From Naegleria gruberi (Eukaryota): 64,000 nucleotides of DNA. Numbering within the stretch: the stretch's first letter is position 1; each line of letters starts with the position of its first letter. The position numbers were made by a program, and so were the translations under genes. Under the pieces are notes generated by a model that saw only the letters and a list, made by a program, of their open reading frames with translations, did no database searches and had not been told where the DNA came from. Shown one piece after another: positions 6,001-62,583 of the stretch. Where the stretch lies: the NCBI GenBank assembly GCA_000004985.1, contig GG738854.1; one strand, written 5' to 3'.

Positions 6001-9000
6001 NNNNNNNNNNNNNNNNNNNNNNNNNNNNNNNNNNNNNNNNNNNNNNNNNNNNNNNNNNNNNNNNNNNNNNNNNNNNNNNNNNNNNNNNNNNNNNNNNNNN
6101 NNNNNNNNNNNNNNNNNNNNNNNNNNNNNNNNNNNNNNNNNNNNNNNNNNNNNNNNNNNNNNNNNNNNNNNNNNNNNNNNNNNNNNNNNNNNNNNNNNNN
6201 NNNNNNNNNNNNNNNNNNNNNNNNNNNNNNNNNNNNNNNNNNNNNNNNNNNNNNNNNNNNNNNNNNNNNNNNNNNNNNNNNNNNNNNNNNNNNNNNNNNN
6301 NNNNNNNNNNNNNNNNNNNNNNNNNNNNNNNNNNNNNNNNNNNNNNNNNNNNNNNNNNNNNNNNNNNNNNNNNNNNNNNNNNNNNNNNNNNNNNNNNNNN
6401 NNNNNNNNNNNNNNNNNNNNNNNNNNNNNNNNNNNNNNNNNNNNNNNNNNNNNNNNNNNNNNNNNNNNNNNNNNNNNNNNNNNNNNNNNNNNNNNNNNNN
6501 NNNNNNNNNNNNNNNNNNNNNNNNNNNNNNNNNNNNNNNNNNNNNNNNNNNNNNNNNNNNNNNNNNNNNNNNNNNNNNNNNNNNNNNNNNNNNNNNNNNN
6601 NNNNNNNNNNNNNNNNNNNNNNNNNNNNNNNNNNNNNNNNNNNNNNNNNNNNNNNNNNNNNNNNNNNNNNNNNNNNNNNNNNNNNNNNNNNNNNNNNNNN
6701 NNNNNNNNNNNNNNNNNNNNNNNNNNNNNNNNNNNNNNNNNNNNNNNNNNNNNNNNNNNNNNNNNNNNNNNNNNNNNNNNNNNNNNNNNNNNNNNNNNNN
6801 NNNNNNNNNNNNNNNNNNNNNNNNNNNNNNNNNNNNNNNNNNNNNNNNNNNNNNNNNNNNNNNNNNNNNNNNNNNNNNNNNNNNNNNNNNNNNNNNNNNN
6901 NNNNNNNNNNNNNNNNNNNNNNNNNNNNNNNNNNNNNNNNNNNNNNNNNNNNNNNNNNNNNNNNNNNNNNNNNNNNNNNNNNNNNNNNNNNNNNNNNNNN
7001 NNNNNNNNNNNNNNNNNNNNNNNNNNNNNNNNNNNNNNNNNNNNNNNNNNNNNNNNNNNNNNNNNNNNNNNNNNNNNNNNNNNNNNNNNNNNNNNNNNNN
7101 NNNNNNNNNNNNNNNNNNNNNNNNNNNNNNNNNNNNNNNNNNNNNNNNNNNNNNNNNNNNNNNNNNNNNNNNNNNNNNNNNNNNNNNNNNNNNNNNNNNN
7201 NNNNNNNNNNNNNNNNNNNNNNNNNNNNNNNNNNNNNNNNNNNNNNNNNNNNNNNNNNNNNNNNNNNNNNNNNNNNNNNNNNNNNNNNNNNNNNNNNNNN
7301 NNNNNNNNNNNNNNNNNNNNNNNNNNNNNNNNNNNNNNNNNNNNNNNNNNNNNNNNNNNNNNNNNNNNNNNNNNNNNNNNNNNNNNNNNNNNNNNNNNNN
7401 NNNNNNNNNNNNNNNNNNNNNNNNNNNNNNNNNNNNNNNNNNNNNNNNNNNNNNNNNNNNNNNNNNNNNNNNNNNNNNNNNNNNNNNNNNNNNNNNNNNN
7501 NNNNNNNNNNNNNNNNNNNNNNNNNNNNNNNNNNNNNNNNNNNNNNNNNNNNNNNNNNNNNNNNNNNNNNNNNNNNNNNNNNNNNNNNNNNNNNNNNNNN
7601 NNNNNNNNNNNNNNNNNNNNNNNNNNNNNNNNNNNNNNNNNNNNNNNNNNNNNNNNNNNNNNNNNNNNNNNNNNNNNNNNNNNNNNNNNNNNNNNNNNNN
7701 NNNNNNNNNNNNNNNNNNNNNNNNNNNNNNNNNNNNNNNNNNNNNNNNNNNNNNNNNNNNNNNNNNNNNNNNNNNNNNNNNNNNNNNNNNNNNNNNNNNN
7801 NNNNNNNNNNNNNNNNNNNNNNNNNNNNNNNNNNNNNNNNNNNNNNNNNNNNNNNNNNNNNNNNNNNNNNNNNNNNNNNNNNNNNNNNNNNNNNNNNNNN
7901 NNNNNNNNNNNNNNNNNNNNNNNNNNNNNNNNNNNNNNNNNNNNNNNNNNNNNNNNNNNNNNNNNNNNNNNNNNNNNNNNNNNNNNNNNNNNNNNNNNNN
8001 NNNNNNNNNNNNNNNNNNNNNNNNNNNNNNNNNNNNNNNNNNNNNNNNNNNNNNNNNNNNNNNNNNNNNNNNNNNNNNNNNNNNNNNNNNNNNNNNNNNN
8101 NNNNNNNNNNNNNNNNNNNNNNNNNNNNNNNNNNNNNNNNNNNNNNNNNNNNNNNNNNNNNNNNNNNNNNNNNNNNNNNNNNNNNNNNNNNNNNNNNNNN
8201 NNNNNNNNNNNNNNNNNNNNNNNNNNNNNNNNNNNNNNNNNNNNNNNNNNNNNNNNNNNNNNNNNNNNNNNNNNNNNNNNNNNNNNNNNNNNNNNNNNNN
8301 NNNNNNNNNNNNNNNNNNNNNNNNNNNNNNNNNNNNNNNNNNNNNNNNNNNNNNNNNNNNNNNNNNNNNNNNNNNNNNNNNNNNNNNNNNNNNNNNNNNN
8401 NNNNNNNNNNNNNNNNNNNNNNNNNNNNNNNNNNNNNNNNNNNNNNNNNNNNNNNNNNNNNNNNNNNNNNNNNNNNNNNNNNNNNNNNNNNNNNNNNNNN
8501 NNNNNNNNNNNNNNNNNNNNNNNNNNNNNNNNNNNNNNNNNNNNNNNNNNNNNNNNNNNNNNNNNNNNNNNNNNNNNNNNNNNNNNNNNNNNNNNNNNNN
8601 NNNNNNNNNNNNNNNNNNNNNNNNNNNNNNNNNNNNNNNNNNNNNNNNNNNNNNNNNNNNNNNNNNNNNNNNNNNNNNNNNNNNNNNNNNNNNNNNNNNN
8701 NNNNNNNNNNNNNNNNNNNNNNNNNNNNNNNNNNNNNNNNNNNNNNNNNNNNNNNNNNNNNNNNNNNNNNNNNNNNNNNNNNNNNNNNNNNNNNNNNNNN
8801 NNNNNNNNNNNNNNNNNNNNNNNNNNNNNNNNNNNNNNNNNNNNNNNNNNNNNNNNNNNNNNNNNNNNNNNNNNNNNNNNNNNNNNNNNNNNNNNNNNNN
8901 NNNNNNNNNNNNNNNNNNNNNNNNNNNNNNNNNNNNNNNNNNNNNNNNNNNNNNNNNNNNNNNNNNNNNNNNNNNNNNNNNNNNNNNNNNNNNNNNNNNN

Positions 9001-12000
9001 NNNNNNNNNNNNNNNNNNNNNNNNNNNNNNNNNNNNNNNNNNNNNNNNNNNNNNNNNNNNNNNNNNNNNNNNNNNNNNNNNNNNNNNNNNNNNNNNNNNN
9101 NNNNNNNNNNNNNNNNNNNNNNNNNNNNNNNNNNNNNNNNNNNNNNNNNNNNNNNNNNNNNNNNNNNNNNNNNNNNNNNNNNNNNNNNNNNNNNNNNNNN
9201 NNNNNNNNNNNNNNNNNNNNNNNNNNNNNNNNNNNNNNNNNNNNNNNNNNNNNNNNNNNNNNNNNNNNNNNNNNNNNNNNNNNNNNNNNNNNNNNNNNNN
9301 NNNNNNNNNNNNNNNNNNNNNNNNNNNNNNNNNNNNNNNNNNNNNNNNNNNNNNNNNNNNNNNNNNNNNNNNNNNNNNNNNNNNNNNNNNNNNNNNNNNN
9401 NNNNNNNNNNNNNNNNNNNNNNNNNNNNNNNNNNNNNNNNNNNNNNNNNNNNNNNNNNNNNNNNNNNNNNNNNNNNNNNNNNNNNNNNNNNNNNNNNNNN
9501 NNNNNNNNNNNNNNNNNNNNNNNNNNNNNNNNNNNNNNNNNNNNNNNNNNNNNNNNNNNNNNNNNNNNNNNNNNNNNNNNNNNNNNNNNNNNNNNNNNNN
9601 NNNNNNNNNNNNNNNNNNNNNNNNNNNNNNNNNNNNNNNNNNNNNNNNNNNNNNNNNNNNNNNNNNNNNNNNNNNNNNNNNNNNNNNNNNNNNNNNNNNN
9701 NNNNNNNNNNNNNNNNNNNNNNNNNNNNNNNNNNNNNNNNNNNNNNNNNNNNNNNNNNNNNNNNNNNNNNNNNNNNNNNNNNNNNNNNNNNNNNNNNNNN
9801 NNNNNNNNNNNNNNNNNNNNNNNNNNNNNNNNNNNNNNNNNNNNNNNNNNNNNNNNNNNNNNNNNNNNNNNNNNNNNNNNNNNNNNNNNNNNNNNNNNNN
9901 NNNNNNNNNNNNNNNNNNNNNNNNNNNNNNNNNNNNNNNNNNNNNNNNNNNNNNNNNNNNNNNNNNNNNNNNNNNNNNNNNNNNNNNNNNNNNNNNNNNN
10001 NNNNNNNNNNNNNNNNNNNNNNNNNNNNNNNNNNNNNNNNNNNNNNNNNNNNNNNNNNNNNNNNNNNNNNNNNNNNNNNNNNNNNNNNNNNNNNNNNNNN
10101 NNNNNNNNNNNNNNNNNNNNNNNNNNNNNNNNNNNNNNNNNNNNNNNNNNNNNNNNNNNNNNNNNNNNNNNNNNNNNNNNNNNNNNNNNNNNNNNNNNNN
10201 NNNNNNNNNNNNNNNNNNNNNNNNNNNNNNNNNNNNNNNNNNNNNNNNNNNNNNNNNNNNNNNNNNNNNNNNNNNNNNNNNNNNNNNNNNNNNNNNNNNN
10301 NNNNNNNNNNNNNNNNNNNNNNNNNNNNNNNNNNNNNNNNNNNNNNNNNNNNNNNNNNNNNNNNNNNNNNNNNNNNNNNNNNNNNNNNNNNNNNNNNNNN
10401 NNNNNNNNNNNNNNNNNNNNNNNNNNNNNNNNNNNNNNNNNNNNNNNNNNNNNNNNNNNNNNNNNNNNNNNNNNNNNNNNNNNNNNNNNNNNNNNNNNNN
10501 NNNNNNNNNNNNNNNNNNNNNNNNNNNNNNNNNNNNNNNNNNNNNNNNNNNNNNNNNNNNNNNNNNNNNNNNNNNNNNNNNNNNNNNNNNNNNNNNNNNN
10601 NNNNNNNNNNNNNNNNNNNNNNNNNNNNNNNNNNNNNNNNNNNNNNNNNNNNNNNNNNNNNNNNNNNNNNNNNNNNNNNNNNNNNNNNNNNNNNNNNNNN
10701 NNNNNNNNNNNNNNNNNNNNNNNNNNNNNNNNNNNNNNNNNNNNNNNNNNNNNNNNNNNNNNNNNNNNNNNNNNNNNNNNNNNNNNNNNNNNNNNNNNNN
10801 NNNNNNNNNNNNNNNNNNNNNNNNNNNNNNNNNNNNNNNNNNNNNNNNNNNNNNNNNNNNNNNNNNNNNNNNNNNNNNNNNNNNNNNNNNNNNNNNNNNN
10901 NNNNNNNNNNNNNNNNNNNNNNNNNNNNNNNNNNNNNNNNNNNNNNNNNNNNNNNNNNNNNNNNNNNNNNNNNNNNNNNNNNNNNNNNNNNNNNNNNNNN
11001 NNNNNNNNNNNNNNNNNNNNNNNNNNNNNNNNNNNNNNNNNNNNNNNNNNNNNNNNNNNNNNNNNNNNNNNNNNNNNNNNNNNNNNNNNNNNNNNNNNNN
11101 NNNNNNNNNNNNNNNNNNNNNNNNNNNNNNNNNNNNNNNNNNNNNNNNNNNNNNNNNNNNNNNNNNNNNNNNNNNNNNNNNNNNNNNNNNNNNNNNNNNN
11201 NNNNNNNNNNNNNNNNNNNNNNNNNNNNNNNNNNNNNNNNNNNNNNNNNNNNNNNNNNNNNNNNNNNNNNNNNNNNNNNNNNNNNNNNNNNNNNNNNNNN
11301 NNNNNNNNNNNNNNNNNNNNNNNNNNNNNNNNNNNNNNNNNNNNNNNNNNNNNNNNNNNNNNNNNNNNNNNNNNNNNNNNNNNNNNNNNNNNNNNNNNNN
11401 NNNNNNNNNNNNNNNNNNNNNNNNNNNNNNNNNNNNNNNNNNNNNNNNNNNNNNNNNNNNNNNNNNNNNNNNNNNNNNNNNNNNNNNNNNNNNNNNNNNN
11501 NNNNNNNNNNNNNNNNNNNNNNNNNNNNNNNNNNNNNNNNNNNNNNNNNNNNNNNNNNNNNNNNNNNNNNNNNNNNNNNNNNNNNNNNNNNNNNNNNNNN
11601 NNNNNNNNNNNNNNNNNNNNNNNNNNNNNNNNNNNNNNNNNNNNNNNNNNNNNNNNNNNNNNNNNNNNNNNNNNNNNNNNNNNNNNNNNNNNNNNNNNNN
11701 NNNNNNNNNNNNNNNNNNNNNNNNNNNNNNNNNNNNNNNNNNNNNNNNNNNNNNNNNNNNNNNNNNNNNNNNNNNNNNNNNNNNNNNNNNNNNNNNNNNN
11801 NNNNNNNNNNNNNNNNNNNNNNNNNNNNNNNNNNNNNNNNNNNNNNNNNNNNNNNNNNNNNNNNNNNNNNNNNNNNNNNNNNNNNNNNNNNNNNNNNNNN
11901 NNNNNNNNNNNNNNNNNNNNNNNNNNNNNNNNNNNNNNNNNNNNNNNNNNNNNNNNNNNNNNNNNNNNNNNNNNNNNNNNNNNNNNNNNNNNNNNNNNNN

Positions 12001-12464
12001 NNNNNNNNNNNNNNNNNNNNNNNNNNNNNNNNNNNNNNNNNNNNNNNNNNNNNNNNNNNNNNNNNNNNNNNNNNNNNNNNNNNNNNNNNNNNNNNNNNNN
12101 NNNNNNNNNNNNNNNNNNNNNNNNNNNNNNNNNNNNNNNNNNNNNNNNNNNNNNNNNNNNNNNNNNNNNNNNNNNNNNNNNNNNNNNNNNNNNNNNNNNN
12201 NNNNNNNNNNNNNNNNNNNNNNNNNNNNNNNNNNNNNNNNNNNNNNNNNNNNNNNNNNNNNNNNNNNNNNNNNNNNNNNNNNNNNNNNNNNNNNNNNNNN
12301 NNNNNNNNNNNNNNNNNNNNNNNNNNNNNNNNNNNNNNNNNNNNNNNNNNNNNNNNNNNNNNNNNNNNNNNNNNNNNNNNNNNNNNNNNNNNNNNNNNNN
12401 NNNNNNNNNNNNNNNNNNNNNNNNNNNNNNNNNNNNNNNNNNNNNNNNNNNNNNNNNNNNNNNN
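1..12464. other. Assembly gap (run of N)
   Basis: Uninterrupted n characters. No sequence is available, so nothing can be annotated here. Confidence 0.99.
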
Positions 12465-14188: not shown

Positions 14189-15078
14189 NNNNNNNNNNNN
14201 NNNNNNNNNNNNNNNNNNNNNNNNNNNNNNNNNNNNNNNNNNNNNNNNNNNNNNNNNNNNNNNNNNNNNNNNNNNNNNNNNNNNNNNNNNNNNNNNNNNN
14301 NNNNNNNNNNNNNNNNNNNNNNNNNNNNNNNNNNNNNNNNNNNNNNNNNNNNNNNNNNNNNNNNNNNNNNNNNNNNNNNNNNNNNNNNNNNNNNNNNNNN
14401 NNNNNNNNNNNNNNNNNNNNNNNNNNNNNNNNNNNNNNNNNNNNNNNNNNNNNNNNNNNNNNNNNNNNNNNNNNNNNNNNNNNNNNNNNNNNNNNNNNNN
14501 NNNNNNNNNNNNNNNNNNNNNNNNNNNNNNNNNNNNNNNNNNNNNNNNNNNNNNNNNNNNNNNNNNNNNNNNNNNNNNNNNNNNNNNNNNNNNNNNNNNN
14601 NNNNNNNNNNNNNNNNNNNNNNNNNNNNNNNNNNNNNNNNNNNNNNNNNNNNNNNNNNNNNNNNNNNNNNNNNNNNNNNNNNNNNNNNNNNNNNNNNNNN
14701 NNNNNNNNNNNNNNNNNNNNNNNNNNNNNNNNNNNNNNNNNNNNNNNNNNNNNNNNNNNNNNNNNNNNNNNNNNNNNNNNNNNNNNNNNNNNNNNNNNNN
14801 NNNNNNNNNNNNNNNNNNNNNNNNNNNNNNNNNNNNNNNNNNNNNNNNNNNNNNNNNNNNNNNNNNNNNNNNNNNNNNNNNNNNNNNNNNNNNNNNNNNN
14901 NNNNNNNNNNNNNNNNNNNNNNNNNNNNNNNNNNNNNNNNNNNNNNNNNNNNNNNNNNNNNNNNNNNNNNNNNNNNNNNNNNNNNNNNNNNNNNNNNNNN
15001 NNNNNNNNNNNNNNNNNNNNNNNNNNNNNNNNNNNNNNNNNNNNNNNNNNNNNNNNNNNNNNNNNNNNNNNNNNNNNN
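14189..15078. other. Assembly gap (run of N)
   Basis: Uninterrupted n characters. The 13982..15094 minus 'ORF' in the track is an artefact of this gap. Confidence 0.99.
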
Positions 15079-31016: not shown

Positions 31017-34000
31017 ATGGGACAATCACAAGGTTCCCTCCCACCAGAGTTTGAACAATCACTCGGAAGAGTGTTACATTTTGATGATCAATTGTTGATG
31101 GAAACATGTCCTAATGTTGAACAACAATTTGATATTTTACATGATATTGTACTCTCGTTATATGATCATTCGCAATTTAAACATTTTATACAAACACGAA
31201 TAGATGCTCTAGTATTAAAACATTTAGGAAGAATTTTGTGTTTTCTTGTTAATATTCACAAAGAATTAATGGAACAAGAACAACAAATTTTATACAAGAA
31301 ACAAACAAGTTTAACTTTAGAAATTGAAAAAGTTATTATATGTATATATGAAATGGCAGTACATTTTCTATCAAATCCATTCTTGTATCAATCATTAGCA
31401 CTTAATTTATTACAAGGAGAAAAGAATTCTCAAGAAAAGGAACAAGTGTATAGTTATTATATCGATCCTGGATTTTATTTCCTTTCTAAAGCAAATATTA
31501 TAGAACAAGTTTTAAGATTTTTGAAGGAATTAACAATTGGAGGACCAAGTAGACACTTGTTTTTAGAACCACAAACACCAACAACTGATGTAAATGGACA
31601 ACAAGATCAAAAAATTACAGAACAACGAAAACAAGATTTTATTGGATCTATTATGGAAATTCAACAACAATTTGCTTTAAAATCTAGAGGGTGAGTATTT
31701 TACAATGTAATTGAATTCTCATCAAATATAGATTTGAATTAATGTACACAATTTTGGAATTTTATGTTCATGATAAGGCAAAGAAGCAAAAGAAACACAT
31801 AACAAAACAAGTACTTGCTAAAATTATATTAACTGTCTTGGATATTTCTAAAAATATACTTGATAATGAAAATTCTACTGTTGCAAAAGCCTTTATTTCT
31901 ATTTTTGGACTTGATGCGGATAGGGACATTGCTATACGGAAGAGATTTTGTCATAATTTATTATTCTTATGTCAAATTACCCAACCAAATATTCAAATAC
32001 AAGATTTGTCACAAGATTCAGAATTGGATTTGTATTTTTTAATTAGAATGGGTGCTATTCACCTTCTTTTTATAATATTTAATTATTCATCAGTGGAGGG
32101 AAGAAAGTTAATAATTGATTGTGTTATTATTTATGGATTACTTTTAAATCAGTTGAAAAATTTAATAATCCAACAACAAACATCATCCCTCATTAATAAT
32201 CAATCTAAACAACTAATGATCAATTTAGAATTTTTGAGAGTTTGCTCCAGTTTAAATACTGGTTCTCTTGAAAATATTTGTACATTTCTCTTGAGTAATT
32301 TATTACCCCAACAAATGGTCTTGTACATAACCAACTCACAAATTGTGCTTGAGAATGAAAATGTTGAAAATTTATTCTCTATGGATCATTATTCATACTC
32401 TCTGGTGTGGAATCAACAAATGAGAGATGAACTTGTTAAAGTCATTGATACAGAATTATCATTGGCAGAAGATAGATTGGATTTGATTTCCAATGAGCAC
32501 CAATGGGTCTCTGTACTTAGTATTTGTAAAGATTTAAAAATTAATTATAAGAATTTGCATAGTGAAATTGAAGTGAATGGAATTTACATTGAAAGAGCAC
32601 TTGAATATTTATCTCTTAATCCTGATGCAATTATTGAAAATCTACTCACCCACGAAACTTTTGATAGTTTGTATGAAAAGATGCAAATGCTCTCGAATAC
32701 AGACAAAGAAGACTTGGAGTTGAAAAATAAGATACTGATAACACTTTCACGATTGAATGAGTTGGTAAAATTATTACAAATTAACTCAATGAACTCCAAA
32801 CCAAATGAACAAAATGCTAATAATGAATCTGGTACATTATCAGTGCCTTCAGTGTCTGATTTAATTCCAAGAAAATCAGCAACTCCACCTCTTCACAAAA
32901 TGATCTACTTGTCTAAGTTACTTTCATTGAAACATTTTAAAGATGAATACTTTTACAATACAGCAGTGCTTATATCTTCAATCTTATCAAATAAGAAGAA
33001 GATAGCAAATTATGTGGAAGATTTAGACAGAGAAGATGCTCTAACTAATATAATGATTCATTTAGCAAGAGAACAGCTTATATCATTTTACTATTCTGAT
33101 CAAGGAAATACAGTCTATATGGAAACAGAAGGACTTAGAAGAATTTTATCATTGGTTTATATTTTGGGAGAATTATTGAACTTTAAACCTAGAAGAATGT
33201 TAGATATTGTAAATAATCCAAATTTCATTAATGTGATTGTAATGAATTTAAGTCTTTCATCAAATAAGACTGAGAAGTTGGAGTTAATATGGCAATCTGT
33301 ATTTTTATTGCATACCCTTTTAGATTCTCCTCTTTACAATTCTCTCAAGTTGAGACAAACTATTCAAAAAACAGGAGTGTTTGAATATTTGCTTGTTATT
33401 ATTTTAAATATGGAAGAACATAGCACCAAATGTTTAACTGCTATTGTTAACTTTTTAAAAGCTTTCCATGTAATCCCACTATCCACAACTGATCAAAGAC
33501 AGTCATTTGAGAGTTATTCTTTCTTGAGATACTTTTTACCAAGTCAACTACTGAAATTATTAGCAAGTGATAAGGAAAGAGATGTAGATTTATTCATTTC
33601 TGCTCTTACTAAACGTGAATATAGTTCACCATTCCTGATTTGGAATGGAACACATAGGAGTATTTTGAAAAATTCTCTCTCTAAACGTTTAAAGGTATTT
33701 GATGAAAAGAGAAAAACACTTTCTAAACAAGTTGCTGAATGGCAACAAACTGAGCCAACTAAAATTGCAAAGGTAATATTCTCTTCGTCAATAACTACCA
33801 ATTACTTGTACACTTTTGAGGAGCCAGAAATTATTTCTTATCAAGATCTAGATGAAAAACTTTCTATCAATGACATATTTGTAGAAGCTTTTGTTAATTT
33901 ACAACCAGGTGGAACAGAAACAGATGAGGATGCATCTATTAATGAACTTGAATATCCTGATGTTTTCTTACTCAAATTGGTCGAAGCATTACAAAAGGAG

Positions 34001-36958
34001 CAAAAATATAGAAACATAGAATTAATAATTGAGGCCCAAACTAAATTATATTTGAACTTTTCATTAGGAAAATATACAACACCAAGCCAAGGTCATTCAC
34101 CTCACTTTTTGAAATATCAAGGATATCCAATACTAATTAGAAAGTATCAAGGACTTCTTGAAGATTTGTCTGATGATTCACAAAGAATCAGGTTGTTAAA
34201 TTTATTTGTTAGATTGATTGCTAGCCAGTTAGAACCTGAACCAGAAATTTCTTATAGAAACAAACTTTTATTTTTGACTTCTGGTGGTTTAATTTTCATT
34301 TCCGAATACATTATCAAGAATTCTGTTTGTAGAAATGATGAACAACTCATGATTAATACTTTGAGAGTTTTAGATTCTATAGCAGATATTTTAATGCCAC
34401 TCATATCTGAAGATGAAGAGGAAAAGTTAATTCCTATTAACTTCTTTGATATATTTGTACCTCTCCTCGACACGAAGTACATTGAAAGTCGTACTGAAGT
34501 TTCACTAAGAACCATCCATTGCATAAGAAAATACGTAAGGCATTTACAAAATGATAATAATCCAATGGAAAAGGTAACACTAGATCCAAAGATTGAACAT
34601 TCTGTCAAACTCATACATAACAGATGGCCACTTATACTTCAATTAATTAATGTTGGTTTCATTTTCAAATATAACGGTAATAGTAATACAACAGAAAATG
34701 ATGACCATACCTTTATCAAAACAATATGTATTACAGCTTTAGAGATTATTCACAATTTGCTTTCTCTTAAGATAAGGTCATCATTTGAAACTTTATTGGA
34801 AAAGTTGTTATTGAAGAATATGATTGAAACTTTAATGCAAATTGGAAAGAGAGGAGAATTGCCAATATTTGACAAGATTAAAACATTTGATGATTTTTAT
34901 AACTTGACAAGATCAGAAACTAATCATATCCTATTGGTTTGGAATGAAAATTTACGCAGTGAATTGCTTGAATTTATTGATTTAAACATTCATAAGAACA
35001 ATAAGGAATTAACAGGTCATATTGAAAAATTCTCCTATACTTGTCTCAAATCTGAAGGCATGTTTAAATTGCTAGATACAAATTTAGATATTTATCCTAC
35101 TTGCTTGATTAGTACATGGAAGGAAAGTAACTTGTTGAGTCTTTCTGAATTCTTGCAGAGTATTGTTGATCCTGCAATTTTAAATTCCACCAATTTGATT
35201 CAAAGTTTAATTACAAGTTTGCACTCCTTACTTGTTGTTGAATACCAACAAAAGATGATTACCAAGGAAACTCTCAGACCACTCGCTCAACAAATTACAC
35301 TTCTCAAGTTGATTGTTTGTCAAGACAGTTCAAAAAATCTTTCCTCAGAAACATCTGAACAAACTTTGATTTTCCTTAACACATCCTATCAACAAGTTAT
35401 TCTTCATATTTATCATTTACTAATTGGATATTTAGCTAATTTGACAAAAGATGAGGAGTTTATGGTAGAATCTGTTAATGATATTCTTGAAATTATTATT
35501 CGTATTTCAAAATTCTTCTCAAAATATTCTAACAAGATTGGAGAGGACAAGACCAAAGAATTTTATCAATTTATGGTTGCAACTATGCACAAGTTTATAA
35601 TTTACTATTATAAGGGATGTAATAATGATAATTCCTTGAAGGAGGAAGCATTATTGTTAAATATTTTTGATCATTTAATTACCTTCTTTAAAACACTAAC
35701 TGTTGGTACTACTCCAAATATTCAAACATATTGTGTCGGAAATGGATTATTACTCTCAGTATTACATGCATCTATCAAGGGAGGTATCCATCAAGTTCAA
35801 GCAGTTAGATTGAAATCAAGTTTATTGTTATCCACTCTGGTTAAACTTTCCATTCCTTCAGTTAATGAAGTTTTGGATCAAATGCTCTTCCCTTCATTTG
35901 CTTCATTGCTTGGTCAAGGACAATTAGAAGAATTTATCAAGCAATTTGATGAAGATGTTGTTAATCCTGAAGTTTGGTGGGATGGAAGAGACAGAGATTT
36001 GGTCAGAGAATATCTATCCGAACATATTAATCTTGCATCTGATTATTTCTTTATGGGAACACATTTAGAAGATTTTGCTTCCAATACTCAAAGCAAATTC
36101 AACGCAAACACAGAAAAGGGTTACAAACTTGGTAGTATTTATTTAACCAAGTTGAATGAAATGCCAACTTATCAATTTACTTTAATAACCAATCATCAAT
36201 TTATTGAAATGGTTGTTGAAAAACTTTCATCCCTTTGTGCTAAATATGAGGAAAGTAATATTAATAATACTGAAGAAAGAAAAACAATTTGGAAAACTGC
36301 CTATGCATTCATTCAAAATCATTCACTTTACAAGGATGTTAATTCAACAGAATTATCTTTAGAAGTTGAACAATCACTTCTTCTCCTACTTGAATTATTC
36401 TGCAGAGAATTAGTATACATTACTCAATCAGAGGAAAAGCATGACATGTTCGTGATTAATTTACTTTGTTTCTTGACTACTTTTGTTAAAAAGTATCCAA
36501 GTTCTTTCATTCAATTTTTGAATAATTTCTCTGATTTTACAACAATACTACTTCGTGTTGCTAATAACTATAGAAGTATTTTGAGATCTGTTATTCAAGT
36601 TATTTTGGATACTGTTGGAATTTTAACAAAAGAAAAAACAGGAATGTCCCAAGCACTCTATGAAAGTATTTTGGAACAAGTTGGTTCAGAGTTGAATATT
36701 GCCTATTTATTCTTATTTATTATGAATAAGGTTCAAGCTTCTCAATGTGTGGAAGTACTTATTTCAATTTCAAAGATTGATGATAATTTAGTTCCATATT
36801 TGAAAGAGAGTTGGTTCATTCCTGAAACATTCTTCACCTCATCAGAACATCTTTTAGAAAGTTTGGCAAATGTAAATGATGAATTTTGGAATGATGAAAA
36901 ACGAACCACTCTAACACAGAAATCTGAAGAAATTATTAAAAAGTTTGAAGCAAATTAA
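31017..36958 (+). CDS. Very large (~1950 aa) RME-8/DNAJC13-like IWN-repeat protein. It has an N-terminal MGxxxS myristoylation motif and no detectable J domain. Exons 31017..31690 and 31732..36958.
   Basis: It begins MGQSQGSLPP…. A 41-bp GTGAGT…tatag intron (phase 2) joins a 1738-aa ORF. There are four IWN-type repeats: LVWNQQMRDELVKVI, FLIWNGTHRSILKNSL, LLVWNENLRSELLEFI, PEVWWDGRDRDLVREYL. No HPD tripeptide or J-domain helix pattern occurs anywhere in the protein. Confidence 0.7.
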
Positions 36959-41242: not shown

Positions 41243-43987
41243 TTATTCATAATCAATTGTGAGTTGTCCCTTTTCAACCAATTCAATTTCTTTTTCGGTC
41301 AGTTCAGAAATTCTTTCACCTCTATTTCTTTCGAATCGATAAGGAACAATTCCAAGAGTACCATCAAATCTATTCTTCTTAACTTGTAAATATTTGTAAT
41401 GCTTATTTCTTTGAATCATGATAATATTGTCGGCTTCTTGTGTTGCCTTTGCAGAACCAAACACACTGGAAATTTGTAATTGTTCCTTTTCGTCAATCTT
41501 CTTTGGATGGACAACAAGCGTCACGTGTACAGATCTTGTAGTTGCAAACTTTCTCAACTTTTCAATTGCCTTATCTTGTAATTCAAATCTATTAGTATAT
41601 GATGCATCAGAGGTTGACATCATAAATTGTAAATTATCAATCACAATATGAGCAACATCATATACATAGACTGCATAGTCCATAGCATCCAATAATTCGT
41701 CAATATCTGTTGAACCATAAAAGTTCAAAAAGTACATTGGTAATTCTGAGAATTGTTCACTAATAATTTCAAAATCCCTCTTCAATTCTTCTGGAGAATA
41801 TTGTCTAGCTGGTTGATAGGTTGATTTTGGCTTGGATTTAGATTCCTTAGCTGGCTTCTTTGGAGCTGGTGGAGCCTCTTCACCTGCATACGACATTAAA
41901 CTCATTGGATCAGCATCATAACTGTCAAACATGCTTGCATCTGATTCATCTTCTTCCTTTGTTTGCTCTTCTTGTTGCTCTTCAATTTCTTTGATTTGAA
42001 GACTTTCTTGTTTTCTTTGCTCCTTTTCAAATGAATGGTTGGTAGCTAAATCTTTACCAGCCAATTGACACATCATCTTTTTGATAAGTCTGTGATTTCT
42101 AATTTCAAATGAACCCCACAGTGTTGGTACATTACCATATTTACAATAGTCCAATGAAAGTTGTGAAAGAACTGTTGTCTTACCAATACCAGTGGCACCT
42201 GTAATGATTGTTAATTCTCCTCTTCTGTGCCCCTTTAAGATCTTGTTCAGACCTGGGAAAAAGTGAGATTGAACTCCATTCACAACTTCTGATTTGTCAA
42301 AAAGTTCTCTATATACTTGTTGTTTAAATGTGTTGAATGTTAAAATTCTTTCATGTTGAATTGGTGCAGCCTCTTCTATCAATCTGTGGAAGTCAAGACC
42401 TGCAAGCAATGCTTCATTTGCATCCTTAATTTTCTTTTCATTGGTTTGTTCTATTGGGTCACCATACTCATCAACTACTTCCTTATAATTCGAGTGGACA
42501 ATATAACATCTGCCAACACCAAGTTTTTTGGAGAAGAGTTCAGCTCCTTGTTGACCTGGAACATCGTCATCCATCCACAAGTAAATCTTATCAAAATCTT
42601 CTAGCCATTGGACGACATCAACTGGAAGTGATCGACATCCATTTGGTAATGAAACAGCTGGAATACCAGTCTTTTGATAGACAGCCATAGCATCAAACTC
42701 TCCTTCTGTAATGATAATTGTCTTCAAATCCTTTGGATTCTTCTTTCCCAAATCTCCATCATTTGCTAATGTCTTTCCTTTCACATTACTTTGTGGGTTA
42801 GTAGTAGTAGTGGTAGTAGATGGCTTTTCATTCTTAAATTTAGAAGCAATCAAGTGCCATCCAAATAAACCCCAATTATTTGTTTGAGGAGGATCCAATT
42901 TCATACATGTCTTATCTTGGATAGCTCTTATTTTATGTCTGGATAAAAGAATGCCACTTTCATGAGATTTGGTTGGTTTGAACATTGGGAATGTGAAACA
43001 AAGCTCATTAACTCTTACAAGGTTTTCTGTCTCTTGTTCTGGATTTTCGATTACCTTTGAAAATGGGAATACTCCACATCCAACACCATACATTGCTGCT
43101 ACATCCTTCTTGATTCCTCTTACCTTTTCAAGATATTGAACTGCTTCTGGGAAATCTACTCCATCAAAGTTGCTTCTGTATGTTTCAAACTCCTTCTTTG
43201 TTGGTTTATCCCTCTTCTTTGGTAAATTAGTTGCTGATGTTTCATTGTTTTGCCCTCCTGCTTTTGGTTGATTGTTGGATACTGAATCTGAGTGAAGTGT
43301 TGAAATTGGTGAATCCTTATGGAAATTCATTTTAAAATCAAACCAAGAACCCTTAGCTCCACATCTGTGACACATATAAGCTCCACTAGCTCTGTGAATA
43401 TATAATTTCCATAAATTAGTGACCTTTCCTTTAGTATCATGGCAGAAAGGACATTCTTTTACAATAATTTCATTCATTACATTTCTAAAGCCCAATCCTT
43501 TTCTTGTTAAAAACTCTTGAATATCACTTTCGTTGATCTTGTAAAAATTAGAAACAAATGTATTAAAAGCATTGGAGTGATTTTGAAGTGGGTTATTTCT
43601 ATCTTCTGGAGTTTCCTCAAGTGTGTCGTCATATTCCTCTTCAAACTCTTCCTCTTGTTGTTGTTTTATATTTCTATTCGGTGCTATTGTTGATGATGCA
43701 TTGGTCATTACTTGTTGAATTTTAGCATTAGAAGTTGTGGTAGGCTTTGATTGTGTTGATGTGCTTGTTGCTGTGGTATTATTATTGGTGGCTGCTGGGG
43801 TAATCTTTTTAATTACTTTTGTGTAACTAAATTGTTGGCAACAATTGCAATTATGATGATAACATCTGTGTTGTTGAGAGTTGTTGATATTGTGCAAGTG
43901 TTGATGATGGCCTTGTTCGGAAGGTAAATATTTGCTTCTCGATGAGACAATAGAGTTTTTGAAAGCCTTTGAAACCAACTTTCTCAT
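41243..43987 (-). CDS. Twinkle-type mitochondrial DNA primase-helicase (T7 gp4-like) with intact zinc-finger, TOPRIM and DnaB-like helicase motifs
   Basis: It is a 914-aa single ORF with ATG at 43985..43987. The Zn ribbon is CPFCHDTKG…CHRCGAKG. The TOPRIM motif is IIITEGEFDAMAV…WMDDDVPG. Walker A is TGATGIGKTT and Walker B is HIVIDNLQFM. The N-terminus is low-complexity and presequence-like. Confidence 0.85.
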   Translation of the reverse strand: MRKLVSKAFKNSIVSSRSKYLPSEQGHHQHLHNINNSQQHRCYHHNCNCCQQFSYTKVIKKITPAATNNNTTATSTSTQSKPTTTSNAKIQQVMTNASSTIAPNRNIKQQQEEEFEEEYDDTLEETPEDRNNPLQNHSNAFNTFVSNFYKINESDIQEFLTRKGLGFRNVMNEIIVKECPFCHDTKGKVTNLWKLYIHRASGAYMCHRCGAKGSWFDFKMNFHKDSPISTLHSDSVSNNQPKAGGQNNETSATNLPKKRDKPTKKEFETYRSNFDGVDFPEAVQYLEKVRGIKKDVAAMYGVGCGVFPFSKVIENPEQETENLVRVNELCFTFPMFKPTKSHESGILLSRHKIRAIQDKTCMKLDPPQTNNWGLFGWHLIASKFKNEKPSTTTTTTNPQSNVKGKTLANDGDLGKKNPKDLKTIIITEGEFDAMAVYQKTGIPAVSLPNGCRSLPVDVVQWLEDFDKIYLWMDDDVPGQQGAELFSKKLGVGRCYIVHSNYKEVVDEYGDPIEQTNEKKIKDANEALLAGLDFHRLIEEAAPIQHERILTFNTFKQQVYRELFDKSEVVNGVQSHFFPGLNKILKGHRRGELTIITGATGIGKTTVLSQLSLDYCKYGNVPTLWGSFEIRNHRLIKKMMCQLAGKDLATNHSFEKEQRKQESLQIKEIEEQQEEQTKEEDESDASMFDSYDADPMSLMSYAGEEAPPAPKKPAKESKSKPKSTYQPARQYSPEELKRDFEIISEQFSELPMYFLNFYGSTDIDELLDAMDYAVYVYDVAHIVIDNLQFMMSTSDASYTNRFELQDKAIEKLRKFATTRSVHVTLVVHPKKIDEKEQLQISSVFGSAKATQEADNIIMIQRNKHYKYLQVKKNRFDGTLGIVPYRFERNRGERISELTEKEIELVEKGQLTIDYE

Positions 43988-51983: not shown

Positions 51984-54407
51984 ATGTCATCACAAGTGAC
52001 TCTGATTTTAGATGTTGTTGACAAAAGGGATGCAACTTTTATAGCTGAATTTTATTCCAATAATTGTAGTTATCAACAATTTGTGAAAATTATTCGTGAA
52101 GAGAGTAAGAATCGTTTGAAATTAAACGAATCCTTTGTAGAATGTTACAAATCAGTCGAGTTGATCTTCCGAGGTCATTTTCTTCCTTTTGATAGTATCA
52201 AGCAAATTACACAAGTGTTTAAATATCCATTCTTGAAGAGTTATCAAAAGATGAATCAAAGAAAGGTCAAATCCTTTTTTAGTTGGAAAGACAAACCAGA
52301 ATCTATTTGGGATAGAATGGAGAAACTAGATGAAATTGTTCGAATTCTTATTAATAATGAAACTGATTACAAATCTATGTATTATATTAATAATTTATTT
52401 AGAGATTATGAAAATCAACCGAGCTTGTTGTTTGTTATTGGATCTCATCCGAAAATGGATTGGGGGCATTTGGTTTCTGCTCTTGCAAAATCTCCCGAGT
52501 TGACCAAACACTTGTTTAACTTTAAATATTATTCATTAAATGCACTACCAGAGAAATTATTCCAAATAAGACATGTAGTTTCAGAATTAGTCAAGAAGGA
52601 CATTTTAGCATTACAATTAGCTACTAATTTTAGAAATGATAGAGAGATTGTTCTTGATGCTTGTAAACACAATCCATTGGCTTTACAATTTGCTAGCTCA
52701 GACTTGAGAAATGATAAGGAATTTGTAATGAAAGTGTTGGGAAGAAGATTTAACACACTGCACTATGTGGGAGAGTCTTTATTATCCGATTCACAAGTAT
52801 TGAGAAGAGGAATGATGTCTGAAAAAGAGTGGAGACATGAAAGATTTGATTCTATGAATACTTTTGAATTGATGGAAGAGATTTTGAAGAATAGACCACT
52901 AATGGTTCTCAAATTTTATCATTTATTGGAGGAGAGGGGTCTTGAATTTAGAATTGACTCAATTTGCAACAATTTCAAAATAATTATTGAAAAGTCTCCG
53001 TTCCAAATTCAAGAAAGCATTCTTTTGAGGAATCAAGTCAATCTTTTTAATTCAATTGAAAATCCAAATGTAGCTCTGAAATTTATTTCCATTGGATATT
53101 GTGAAAGATATCGTGCTTGTAAAGATCATTTGCTCCAGTTAACAAAATCGAAATATCCTCATTTGGAAAATCTTTCAATGGAAACAGAGGAAGAAAAGTA
53201 CATTTTAAAAAACCATTCAAATGGTCTCATTACATGTAAAGAAGAATTGAGAAATGATAAGAACTTTGTACTGAGATATTTTCAATTACACACTAATAGA
53301 AAGAGGATGATTTCCATTATTGGTGTTGGGGAGGCTTTGTTAAATGACCAAGAAATATTGAAAGAATATCTTGTCACTAACGGTATTCCTGTAGATGATG
53401 AGAATAATCTATCATCAGAACTCTTGATGAAACAAATTATTTCAGTCTACCCATTGTCCATTGTAAGATTTTACAAATTTTTACAAAATGAAATAGAGTT
53501 CAATATCACCTCTTTTAATTTCCAAGAACTTTGCAGAACAGCACCACTTATTACCGATCTACAATTTGCTTCACTATTAATATGTAAGAATTATTCTTTT
53601 TATTATAAGCTATCAGATGAACTGAGGAAAGAGACATCTTTTGTTAAGATACTGCTTTTTAAAAATGGGGTGAATATTCATTTTAAAAAACTTCCTTCTA
53701 CTTGTTACTCAGATAGAGAAATAATGACCCATATATTGACAACACCTTCATATCACTATAAGAATGAAAGTGAGTCAATTTGTTGTGCAGTTTGTAAAGC
53801 ATTCCCATTTGATATTGACCTTATGAAACAAGCAGTCAAATGGCATGGACATACACCACTTCCTTACATGCATCACGACCTGTTACTAAATAATAGGGAT
53901 TTCTGTTATTGGTTAATGGACAGTTGTGGCCATCCACAATCATACTTTAAGTATCTTCCAGAAAAAATCAGAACAGATAGGGATTTTATATTTGAATTGC
54001 TTGATGATTTGTATTGGAAAATTGGATATGTGAAAAATATTACAATGGACTTTGTGATGAAATGCATAAGGAAAAACAAAATTTGCTACAAGTATTTTGG
54101 ACAGATATTTAGAGAAAATAGACAAGTAATTGATCTGGCAATGGAAATGGGTGTTCCAATCAAGGAAATTACAGTATGTCAAGCATTTAGTGAGCATTTG
54201 TGGGATAGTTCACCAGATAATTTTGTTGATAATTTGTGCCATCCAGGTTATCAAGTGTTTCTCAATAAGGATCTACTGAGGAGAGCTATTGAAAGAAATT
54301 CTAAAGGTTTTGACAATATTGAAAAATGGAAGAATTATCCTGGATGTGAGTGTTTATCCGAGCAAGATTGGACAGATTTGAAAAAGTTAGCAAGTGCCAT
54401 GGAATAG
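51984..54407 (+). CDS. DUF4116-repeat protein (807 aa)
   Basis: It is an ATG-initiated single ORF. It has repeated ~24-aa units of the DUF4116 type (LRNDREIVLDACKHNPLALQFASSDLRNDKEFVMKVL; ELRNDKNFVLRYF; LRKETSFVKILLF; RTDRDFIFELL). Confidence 0.65.
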   Translation: MSSQVTLILDVVDKRDATFIAEFYSNNCSYQQFVKIIREESKNRLKLNESFVECYKSVELIFRGHFLPFDSIKQITQVFKYPFLKSYQKMNQRKVKSFFSWKDKPESIWDRMEKLDEIVRILINNETDYKSMYYINNLFRDYENQPSLLFVIGSHPKMDWGHLVSALAKSPELTKHLFNFKYYSLNALPEKLFQIRHVVSELVKKDILALQLATNFRNDREIVLDACKHNPLALQFASSDLRNDKEFVMKVLGRRFNTLHYVGESLLSDSQVLRRGMMSEKEWRHERFDSMNTFELMEEILKNRPLMVLKFYHLLEERGLEFRIDSICNNFKIIIEKSPFQIQESILLRNQVNLFNSIENPNVALKFISIGYCERYRACKDHLLQLTKSKYPHLENLSMETEEEKYILKNHSNGLITCKEELRNDKNFVLRYFQLHTNRKRMISIIGVGEALLNDQEILKEYLVTNGIPVDDENNLSSELLMKQIISVYPLSIVRFYKFLQNEIEFNITSFNFQELCRTAPLITDLQFASLLICKNYSFYYKLSDELRKETSFVKILLFKNGVNIHFKKLPSTCYSDREIMTHILTTPSYHYKNESESICCAVCKAFPFDIDLMKQAVKWHGHTPLPYMHHDLLLNNRDFCYWLMDSCGHPQSYFKYLPEKIRTDRDFIFELLDDLYWKIGYVKNITMDFVMKCIRKNKICYKYFGQIFRENRQVIDLAMEMGVPIKEITVCQAFSEHLWDSSPDNFVDNLCHPGYQVFLNKDLLRRAIERNSKGFDNIEKWKNYPGCECLSEQDWTDLKKLASAME

Positions 54408-60273: not shown

Positions 60274-62583
60274 ATGTTTTCACGAGATTGCCCACAAAAT
60301 AAGCAACATAATTCCTCCGAAGAAATTCTTCTTCAACAAGCACAAGATGATGATGAAGATTTAATGATTAACTTTTGTGATTTTGAATTCAATTTAAATT
60401 TACAAAGTCAAATTCAAGACTTGGCACAGATTCGTGAATTTGCAAAAACAATTTCATATTATAAACATCATGATAATAATCGGAATAGTTATGATTTATG
60501 TAATGACGACTGGTTTATGATATTGGATTTTATTCCATTCTTTGAATTTAGCAAATTTGCATTAGTTTGTTCATCATTTGCAGAATTATTGACTTTTAAT
60601 AGAAGATATTTGGTAATGAGAAGAATTTTGAAGGGTTTTCCAATATTGCTGAAGGATCATCACTATTTACCTGTTGAATCATTGGAAATATTGGCAAATA
60701 ATGAAGCACCATCTGATGATCCATCATTTGCCAAGTCAATTTACTCGGACATGATTAATTTTCTATTCGAAAAGAGGAGATACAAAAAGAATATGTGGAA
60801 AAACATTCCTAGTACAAAGATTTTGGAAATGGATCAACAAGTATTCATTTTACCATTTAGAGATTCAATGATTAGAAAAGTATTTAGTGATTTTATTGAT
60901 ATTCCACAAGTTTTGTTGGATGATAGGGATTTTATTTTGAAGTTTTTCAAATCTTTTCCCAAAGCTCCAAGATATTTCACATTCCTCAATTCAAAATTGA
61001 TGCAAGATGAAGAGATTGCCAAGATGGCAGTGCAATCCAATGGATGGTTTATTAGATTTGTTCAAGATCCAACAAGTGAAATTCTTAATACTGCATTCTG
61101 TTCCAGAAAAAGATATATCATTTCATCAACTTCTCACCATACTTTTGAAAGATACAAAGAAAGCTTGATTGAATTTGTGAGAGAGCCATTTTATCATTTG
61201 TTGGAACAGAAATCAATTGTTAATGATTATAGAATGTCTAGAAAGGAATTATTCTTTAAAAGAAATATGATTTTCGATTCCAAATGTGGAAGTAAGAATG
61301 CAGAGTTCTTGTTGCTCTTTTCATTCTTTGAAAAATCACCTGAATTCAAGGGAGTTCTATTATATTTCTACAATGCTAAAACTTCCACTGAAAAATATGA
61401 TCACATTGATGATTTGATTACTGACCTGTTATGTGTTCCAGAGAAATTTCAACCAATTCTATCAAAACCTATGTTAGTTCCTGAAGAATTGAAATGCAAG
61501 ACAAGAGAAATTACCATGTCAACAATGTTGAAAAATATATTGGATGACAATTTCACTTTTGACAATGTAATGACTCATGACAAAAAGAAGCTTACTACAT
61601 CAAGTATTGAATATCTAAGGGAAAGATTGATCCAAAAAATGAAACCGACACCACTCTTTACAGGAATGTATTTCGGTAAGAAAGTTGAAAATATTGATTG
61701 TGAAAACGAAAGTGAAAAAATCAAATTATTGAATGAAATATCAAAATGTAGGGGATTGAATATGAAAATGTTGAAATATTACCCAAAACATTACGTACTT
61801 TTAGATGAGGAAATCAAACAGGACGAAGAGTTTAAAAGAATTGCAATGAGATGTTTAAAATTCAATGCTCAATACTTTGACTTTTCCAAAGATGATATGC
61901 TTGTATTATTACTCTCAGCTAATGTGAAGGTATCTGTTGAATATTTGAAAAAACAGTCAAACTGGAGCTCAACTTTGGAAAGAATCAATAATATTTTCAC
62001 AACAAATGGAAGAATTCGCTCAAATTGGTTAACTTGGCCACAAGTTTATTGCTTGTACAGGTTTTTACTCTGCTACTCATTCAACAGAGATAAATTATTC
62101 ACATTAGAAGATCAAGTGAAAATGATTGATTACATCCCACCTAAACACAAGAAACTCCTTTTGGAATATAGTTATGAGGAGTGCTTGATGGAAAAAATCA
62201 GATTGAAAAACCTAGTCCAGTTTGATTTCTATGATTCAAGAGTATTTCTCTTTGGATTCAGATATATGATTAGTTATAAATCAATTAATGCCATATGTAG
62301 AGTAGTTGATGGTTCATTGATAAAATTCCAACAATCAGATAGACTCCTCTCAGAAATTTTGAAAGTGACACCCAAATTTATTAAGGTATTCATGGAAAAA
62401 AGACCTAAAATTTATAGGAAAGTAATTCTCCCTCCCTATCCAGTTGAATTGGTGATAAAGCTTGCATTGGAAAATCCAAGAATTATTCACTATCTTCCAA
62501 GAAATATTCAAAGTCACCCCTTACTACTTTGTGGGTTGATGGGGATTTATAGAGGTCAACATAATTCGACCACTGGAATGTGA
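60274..62583 (+). CDS. DUF4116-repeat protein (769 aa), paralogue of the 51984 gene
   Basis: It is an ATG-initiated single ORF. DUF4116-type units include LLDDRDFILKFF…LMQDEEIAKMAVQSNGWFIRFVQD and DEEIKQDEEFKRIAMRCLKFNAQYFDFSKDD. Its architecture is similar to the 51984..54407 protein. Confidence 0.65.
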   Translation: MFSRDCPQNKQHNSSEEILLQQAQDDDEDLMINFCDFEFNLNLQSQIQDLAQIREFAKTISYYKHHDNNRNSYDLCNDDWFMILDFIPFFEFSKFALVCSSFAELLTFNRRYLVMRRILKGFPILLKDHHYLPVESLEILANNEAPSDDPSFAKSIYSDMINFLFEKRRYKKNMWKNIPSTKILEMDQQVFILPFRDSMIRKVFSDFIDIPQVLLDDRDFILKFFKSFPKAPRYFTFLNSKLMQDEEIAKMAVQSNGWFIRFVQDPTSEILNTAFCSRKRYIISSTSHHTFERYKESLIEFVREPFYHLLEQKSIVNDYRMSRKELFFKRNMIFDSKCGSKNAEFLLLFSFFEKSPEFKGVLLYFYNAKTSTEKYDHIDDLITDLLCVPEKFQPILSKPMLVPEELKCKTREITMSTMLKNILDDNFTFDNVMTHDKKKLTTSSIEYLRERLIQKMKPTPLFTGMYFGKKVENIDCENESEKIKLLNEISKCRGLNMKMLKYYPKHYVLLDEEIKQDEEFKRIAMRCLKFNAQYFDFSKDDMLVLLLSANVKVSVEYLKKQSNWSSTLERINNIFTTNGRIRSNWLTWPQVYCLYRFLLCYSFNRDKLFTLEDQVKMIDYIPPKHKKLLLEYSYEECLMEKIRLKNLVQFDFYDSRVFLFGFRYMISYKSINAICRVVDGSLIKFQQSDRLLSEILKVTPKFIKVFMEKRPKIYRKVILPPYPVELVIKLALENPRIIHYLPRNIQSHPLLLCGLMGIYRGQHNSTTGM

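Follow-up and report, generated by a model that had tools for sequence, protein, structure and literature searches.

A gene on the plus strand of a 64,000-nucleotide (nt) stretch of Naegleria gruberi contig GG738854.1 (assembly GCA_000004985.1), referred to here as the window, raises the question of whether the scaffold of RME-8/DNAJC13 can be retained once its J domain is gone. RME-8 is usually explained by this domain, through which Hsc70 is brought to endosomes and sorting-nexin, clathrin and ESCRT-0 assemblies are remodelled. A preliminary description of the window, made from the letters of the sequence, presented the gene as RME-8-like, with four IWN repeats, no J domain and an N-myristoylation motif. 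The analysis given here makes it likely that the product is a divergent member of the RME-8/DNAJC13 family that keeps the scaffold, has lost the J, GYF-like and PH-like modules and begins with Met-Gly (MG). It is proposed to be a myristoyl-anchored, Hsp70-independent platform.

The gene lies at 31017-36958, as originally reported. The reported product of 1950 amino acids (aa) is corrected to 1966 aa, since the reading frame is broken by a 41-nt intron. Two open reading frames (ORFs) in different frames are listed within these limits, at 31017-31694 and 31742-36958. Removal of the intron gives KSRGFELMYTILEF, and the counterpart in the orthologues is KSRGFELFYTILEF. The spliced coding sequence is 5901 nt long with one terminal stop. 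In alignments with the N. lovaniensis and N. fowleri orthologues, the translation of exon 1 matches their N-termini and the splice junction (KSRG followed by FELMYTILEF) is covered. The spliced model aligns end to end with both proteins (1991 and 2007 aa, respectively) at 53-54% identity. The large ORF encodes a product with 100% identity to NAEGRDRAFT_78816, which is annotated as a hypothetical protein.

The four IWN motifs are present as quoted in the preliminary description: LVWNQQMRDEL at aa 449, LIWNGTHRSIL at aa 860, LVWNENLRSEL at aa 1293 and VWWDGRDRDL at aa 1639. Four of the 13 tryptophan (Trp) residues of the protein lie inside them. The pattern [LIVW]W[ND]xxxR occurs four times, and in 20,000 shuffles of the sequence the maximum is two, reached once. 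The motifs are not the result of chance. Each of the four repeats scores 18-25 bits against an IWN hidden Markov model (HMM). The fourth motif reads WWD in N. gruberi and has the regular form VIWNAKSRELL in N. fowleri and N. lovaniensis.

Relatives of the protein were collected by an exhaustive profile search with aa 836-1964. This search returns 12 proteins, which comprise the Naegleria set, Willaertia magna, transcriptome and metagenome proteins (P0004-P0010, P0012) and two canonical RME-8 sequences with weak E-values (the DnaJ-containing P0011 and the nematode fragment P0013). In a word-indexed protein database, neither the single sequence nor profiles of 3 and 11 sequences retrieve anything but the Naegleria orthologues and one canonical RME-8, that of Rhodnius prolixus (P0020). 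This protein is full-length, contains RME-8_N, GYF_2 and DnaJ, and serves as the reference. Searches of PDB by phmmer and by profile give no match for the N. gruberi protein (the copy searched has no RME-8 structure).

In the profile-profile comparison (hhalign), an alignment of 11 J-less sequences is set against an alignment of three canonical RME-8 sequences. The tool run gives a probability of 100% and an E-value of 6.7e-42 over 924 columns. In the local run, aa 276-1760 of the N. gruberi protein align collinearly with aa 522-2027 of Rhodnius RME-8 over 1205 columns (E 9e-43). The similarity is therefore not confined to the short repeats, a doubt raised when the gene was first described. 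Identity to canonical RME-8 is only 17-20%. In BLASTP, the N. gruberi protein has long collinear matches to P0006, P0009 and P0010, and these in turn match canonical RME-8, including the IWN3-ARM4-IWN4 segment at E 2e-16. The IWN4 region of the N. gruberi protein matches canonical P0011 directly, with 29% identity (E 5e-8). As a control, a canonical query recovers 80 metagenome loci, in which the J-less HMM scores full-length canonical transcripts at 330-390 bits.

The Pfam family RME-8_N (PF19432) is found in several of the relatives. At 33.8 bits, the N. lovaniensis orthologue (P0002) passes the gathering cut-off of 25.4, with a whole-protein E-value of 1.5e-8; its best stretch is confined to IWN1 (profile positions 746-811). 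The N. fowleri orthologue has no RME-8_N match. P0009, P0010 and P0012 score 72-132 bits; for P0010 the match (131 bits) spans profile positions 395-817 only, which is ARM1 and IWN1. The collinear profile-profile alignment, in which each of the four Trp residues coincides with one of IWN1-4, identifies the protein as a true RME-8 homologue and not a coincidence of motifs.

No HPD motif occurs anywhere in the product and no J domain is detected, including between IWN2 and IWN3, as had been proposed. In the alignment with Rhodnius RME-8, the J domain (aa 1300-1372, HPD at 1342) faces a single clean gap of 73 aa at aa 980/981. The gap site, at nt 33997/33998, is in the middle of the uninterrupted second exon. 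In the multiple alignment of aa 826-1340 with ten homologues, the J domain is an insertion in both canonical rows and is absent from 9 of 9 J-less rows. The flanks of the insertion are conserved (DPExFL...E and N..LI..AQ..L...KY.GY). Three more heterolobosean genomes have this gap as well, and so do two full-length transcripts of other organisms. DnaJ has no Pfam match in the N. gruberi protein (E<=1) or in the J-less relatives scanned. A divergent J domain, sought in the Pfam scans and the profile-profile alignment, is likewise not detectable, and the modelled solenoid is continuous at the site. The HPD at aa 301 of the relative P0006 was considered and set aside; it sits in a conserved ARM3 motif equivalent to LEPEPEIS of N. 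gruberi and not in a J domain.

Two further modules, which the preliminary description did not mention, are also missing: the GYF-like insert and the three PH-like domains. The former is represented by a 47-aa gap after aa 692 that faces aa 1005-1051 of Rhodnius RME-8. GYF_2 is present in Rhodnius RME-8 and has no Pfam match in the N. gruberi protein. For the PH-like head, the J-less N-terminal alignment has no match to aa 1-428 of Rhodnius RME-8. With P0010 as master, aa 135-534 align to Rhodnius aa 429-925 (E 4.8e-12), and with N. gruberi as master the aligned stretches are aa 275-626 and Rhodnius aa 521-912 (E 8.5e-8). Just 134 aa precede the aligned ARM1 region in P0010. The Trp of IWN1 is at aa 451 in N. 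gruberi and at aa 784 in Rhodnius RME-8. Since nothing aligns to aa 1-428, the PH-like head appears to be absent.

The AlphaFold2 model of aa 826-1340, built from an 11-sequence alignment, has a predicted local distance difference test score (pLDDT) of 80.8 and a predicted template modelling score (pTM) of 0.77. In this model, IWN2 and IWN3 each consist of two short strands followed by a long helix, and the Trp stands where strand passes into helix; for IWN3 this passage is at model residue 470. Across the J-gap site the model has consecutive solenoid helices (pLDDT ~90) and no extra helical bundle. Foldseek searches of PDB with this model return only generic ARM proteins (Ric-8A, beta-catenin), none at E<=1e-3. 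These matches fit the ARM designation of the corresponding DNAJC13 segments.

Just downstream of the J-gap site, at window positions 34220-34267 (aa 1055-1070, ASQLEPEPEISYRNKL), there is an ARM3 motif that is strongly conserved; S1065 and N1068 do not vary in the alignment of J-less sequences with P0011 or in that of J-less with canonical sequences. This motif may be a functional surface that normally neighbours the J domain.

The N-terminus has the MGQSQGS start and the fit to the N-myristoylation consensus that were first noticed from the sequence. The pattern used is of the PROSITE type and is anchored at Gly2: G-{EDRKHPFYW}-x(2)-[STAGCN]-{P}. It is matched by all seven complete N-termini of the J-less family, N. 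gruberi included, and each of them starts with MG. The others are MGQAYSN in both N. lovaniensis and N. fowleri, MGQDLST in Willaertia magna, MGSSESK in P0009, MGQGDSK in P0010 and MGNASAS in the true first exon of the P0004 gene. In-frame stops precede the ATG in the window gene, in two full-length transcripts (L001, L002) and in the genomic locus of P0004 (L005). The N-termini of the orthologues align from residue 1, in agreement with Met-Gly as the true N-terminus. N-terminal myristoylation is predicted from the pattern.

The public model NAEGRDRAFT_78816 (1547 aa) begins at an internal methionine, Met420 of the spliced model, and is truncated for this reason. Window positions 31017-32274 are affected: it leaves out exon 1 together with the 41-nt intron, and with the first 419 residues it loses the MG start and most of ARM1. 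The public gene model, which is annotated as hypothetical only, is corrected here.

The same architecture is shared by N. fowleri, N. lovaniensis, Willaertia magna and a few other protists; it marks a small conserved family and not a one-off. In the neighbour-joining trees (724 and 916 columns, unrooted, distance-based and without named taxa), the canonical RME-8 sequences group apart with 100% bootstrap support. HPD is present in all seven canonical sequences of the 916-column tree. Naegleria and Willaertia form a group with 100% support, as do P0004 and P0005; the group of P0009, P0010 and P0006 has 92%. P0017 adjoins the canonical clade, and the split that groups it with the canonical sequences has 98% support. 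The trees show a distinct J-less group, but not its age. No description of a J-less RME-8 family was found in the literature.

P0017 and P0018 (loci L003 and L007; genes at 5188-11817 and 5001-11510) represent a GC- and Ala-rich J-less relative of ~2200 aa that is found in several metagenomes. They are without DnaJ and have a short N-terminus, for which the start chosen by the gene caller is TTG. They could be an intermediate form or an independent loss of the J domain. Of a ~1900-aa gene (L005, 5198-11165) that a prokaryotic gene caller has split into five ORFs, the P0004 "protein" represents the 3' part alone; the gene is interrupted by short introns of roughly 50 nt. N, L, I and K abound in the Willaertia magna protein (P0007, 1689 aa), which is of extremely low complexity and in which IWN2 and IWN3 are degenerate. 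It retains the MGQ start, IWN1, IWN4 and the C-terminal block.

The N. gruberi protein and P0004, P0006, P0008, P0009, P0010 and P0017 have a motif of the WNxExR type close to the C-terminus. It scores -0.2 to 14 bits against the HMM of IWN1-4. Canonical RME-8 ends with a motif of the type W..(F/Y).DQ.HDLF, and WNxExR has no alignable counterpart there. A fifth true IWN repeat at the C-terminus is unsupported, given these weak HMM scores and the lack of alignment to the canonical C-terminus. The motif is treated as a family-specific feature and not as a fifth repeat.

Several observations weigh against a divergent, myristoyl-anchored RME-8. The N. gruberi sequence on its own has no Pfam match at E<=1, and its recognition as an RME-8 relative depends on profiles built from its relatives because RME-8_N does not match it. 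The C-terminal 227 aa do not align to the canonical RME-8 C-terminus (E 0.47). The AlphaFold2 model of aa 767-1966, built from three sequences, has a pLDDT of 41 and is unusable. At the N-terminus, residue 6 is Gly and not the preferred Ser; Gly is allowed at this position and is less favourable than Ser. There is no nearby Cys or basic cluster that could be a second membrane signal, and stable anchoring by myristate alone is doubtful for this reason.

Three of the alternatives have little probability. An unrelated ARM/HEAT-repeat protein with IWN-like motifs acquired by chance or convergence would fit the missing Pfam match of the single sequence and the generic ARM proteins of the PDB fold search. 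The collinear profile-profile alignment with all four motifs in register, the shuffling result, the bridging match of P0010 to RME-8_N and the hairpin-helix fold of the IWN repeats in the model argue the other way; this explanation is barely credible and is regarded as refuted. A J domain might also exist and escape notice because an exon was missed, the assembly has a gap or a region is mis-spliced; in favour of this are the error at the 5' end of NAEGRDRAFT_78816 (1547 against 1966 aa) and the runs of N in the window. The gap site, however, is in the middle of a 5.2-kb uninterrupted ORF far from those runs (1-12464 and 14189-15078), and the gap is repeated in three other heterolobosean genomes and two full-length transcripts. 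Such an artefact is highly improbable and is effectively refuted. A decaying relic of RME-8, either a pseudogene or a functionless remnant, would account for the loss of several functional modules and for the low-complexity Willaertia copy with its two degenerate repeats, but ORFs are intact in four heterolobosean species (1689-2007 aa, and 1966-2007 aa in the three Naegleria). The three Naegleria proteins share 51-54% identity and long invariant blocks, relatives are expressed as full-length transcripts and the MG motif is conserved across the family. Decay is very unlikely.

The place of the protein beside canonical RME-8 is a closer matter. It could be the sole RME-8 of Naegleria or the Heterolobosea, a fast-diverged orthologue that lost the J, GYF and PH-like modules; RME-8-directed Hsp70 recruitment would then be wholly absent in these organisms. 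This is a serious possibility, if short of a probable one. The named J-less members are all heteroloboseans (three Naegleria and Willaertia), and the others could be too. No search finds a canonical Naegleria RME-8, although the word-indexed and J-less-profile searches are ill-suited to excluding one: the J-less C-terminal profile caught only two canonical clusters, at borderline E-values. Metagenome scans for canonical and J-less genes in one sample return nothing for the J-less query, and the 80 loci of the canonical query are all canonical, none from the relevant samples. The literature search found no paper on RME-8/DNAJC13 in Naegleria. On the other hand, such low identity to canonical RME-8, combined with the loss of three modules and the gain of one, is seen more typically in a duplicated copy, and the J-less group splits into deep sub-clades. 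The trypanosome RME-8 orthologue carries a J domain. Trypanosomes are also Discoba, and one report describes their RME-8 orthologue as essential (PMC4007029). The protein may instead belong to an old, separate RME-8 branch that coexists with canonical RME-8 in some protists and acts as a myristoyl-anchored, Hsp70-independent membrane scaffold; this is put forward tentatively. Such a branch could organise sorting-nexin, retromer or WASH machinery on a compartment without the phosphatidylinositol 3-phosphate (PI(3)P) mark, or could alternatively regulate canonical RME-8 through the IWN1/ARM2 dimer interface. If this is true, the IWN/ARM scaffold has a function of its own that is separable from chaperone recruitment.

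A divergent RME-8 family member that keeps the scaffold can be compared with known systems. FAM21 is a subunit of WASH. The IWN repeats were described in RME-8 homologues and not in other proteins by Norris et al. 2022 (PMC9642905). In canonical RME-8, the J domain recruits Hsp70, and three PH-like domains in roughly the first 400 residues bind PI(3)P and inositol hexakisphosphate (InsP6) (PMC9642905, PMC13618431). The dimer interface consists of IWN1 and ARM2, and recruitment of WASH is supported by dimerisation; the IWN3/IWN4 C-terminal region binds SNX-1 and controls microdomain localisation (PMC9642905, PMC13618431). The N. gruberi protein is like RME-8/DNAJC13 (GRV2 in Arabidopsis) in its order ARM1-IWN1-ARM2-IWN2-ARM3-IWN3-ARM4-IWN4-ARM5 and in its four dispersed IWN repeats, a pair to each side of the centre. 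The IWN fold of the predicted model, a short beta-hairpin continued by a long helix, with the Trp where the two meet, is that of DNAJC13 (PMC13618431).

Unlike RME-8/DNAJC13, the N. gruberi protein has no J domain or HPD and no predicted Hsp70 recruitment, and it is without the PHL1-3 head and the GYF-like insert. Also unlike RME-8/DNAJC13, the J-less proteins have the MG myristoylation consensus and a family-specific C-terminus with WNxExR, and they are outside the canonical clade with its 100% support. RME-8 homologues with mutations at key J-domain residues, the only variants of this sort mentioned by Norris et al. (PMC9642905, legend of Fig 1C), are of the same lineage, and Hsp70 activation is presumably compromised in both cases; those homologues retain the J domain, whereas here the whole 73-aa domain and two other modules are absent. 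The protein is best filed as a J-less RME-8-like protein and not as an RME-8 co-chaperone, because it has no J domain, PH-like head or GYF-like insert. N-myristoylated peripheral proteins include the Arf GTPases, the Src-family kinases and others that start with MGxxxS/T. The J-less proteins resemble these in Met-Gly and a small residue at position 6, and P0009 and P0010 have the textbook MGxxxSK form. The N. gruberi N-terminus differs from them in that it has no palmitoylatable Cys or polybasic stretch and its modification is predicted only.

Features of the N. gruberi gene, with positions in the window
Feature	Position	Strand	Remarks
Whole gene	31017-36958	+	one 41-nt intron; product 1966 aa
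Exon 1 (aa 1-224 and two bases of codon 225)	31017..31690	+	ATG at 31017, in-frame stops upstream
N-terminal MGQSQGS, N-myristoylation consensus (Gly2, small residue at 6, no Pro at 7)	31017..31037	+	PROSITE-type pattern
GT..AG intron, 41 nt, GTGAGT...ATAG	31691..31731	+	removal restores the reading frame
Exon 2 (aa 225-1966 and stop codon)	31732..36958	+	uninterrupted, 5.2 kb
ARM-solenoid/IWN core (aa 276-1760), RME-8 ARM1 to IWN4 and into ARM5	31883..36337	+	hhalign
IWN1 module (aa 443-515, W451)	32384..32602	+	W451 corresponds to Rhodnius RME-8 784; IWN HMM 25 bits
Site of the missing GYF-like insert of canonical ARM2 (between aa 692 and 693)	33131..33136	+	47-aa gap
IWN2 module (aa 854-947, W862)	33617..33898	+	W862 corresponds to W1214 of Rhodnius RME-8
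Site of the missing J domain (between aa 980 and 981)	33995..34000	+	73-aa gap, both flanks aligned
IWN3 module (aa 1288-1350, W1295)	34919..35107	+	W1295 corresponds to W1653 of Rhodnius RME-8
IWN4 module (aa 1633-1705, W1641)	35954..36172	+	W1641 corresponds to W1920 of Rhodnius RME-8
C-terminal FWNDEKRTTL motif (aa 1943-1954)	36884..36919	+	kept in the J-less family, weakly IWN-like

The window has a guanine-plus-cytosine (GC) content of ~30%. Runs of N at 1-12464 and 14189-15078, 13,354 bases in total, leave the first fifth of the window unsequenced and are partly responsible for an apparent GC dip at 14-16 kb. Both are far from the gene at 31017-36958. On the minus strand, a 914-aa ORF at 41243-43987 contains Toprim (aa 423-497) and DnaB_C/AAA_25 (aa 568-685) and looks like a Twinkle-like primase-helicase. 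Two large plus-strand ORFs, at 51984-54407 (807 aa) and 60274-62583 (769 aa), contain DUF4116 repeats (E 2.5e-34 and 5e-12, respectively). They are ~6 kb apart and look like paralogues.

With the modules that remain, the protein would be incapable of Hsp70 activation and of reading phosphoinositides in the manner of RME-8. Its N-terminal Gly would be myristoylated co-translationally, and membrane attachment would therefore be independent of phosphoinositides. Membranes are probably reached through the N-terminal myristate, perhaps with help from protein partners, which is suggested because no second lipid or basic signal is evident. At the membrane, the protein would be an Hsp70-independent platform that works through the retained IWN/ARM surfaces. 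It may act alone, or it may pair or compete with canonical RME-8.

The impact of the finding is moderate, as the organisms are non-model and the function is inferred. The system is tractable: Naegleria can be cultured, and relatives are available for comparison. The J-less family would be a natural separation-of-function experiment, in which the scaffold has long persisted in proteins that have neither the J domain nor the lipid-reading head and whose predicted membrane anchor is a different one. This long retention suggests that the IWN/ARM platform is useful by itself.

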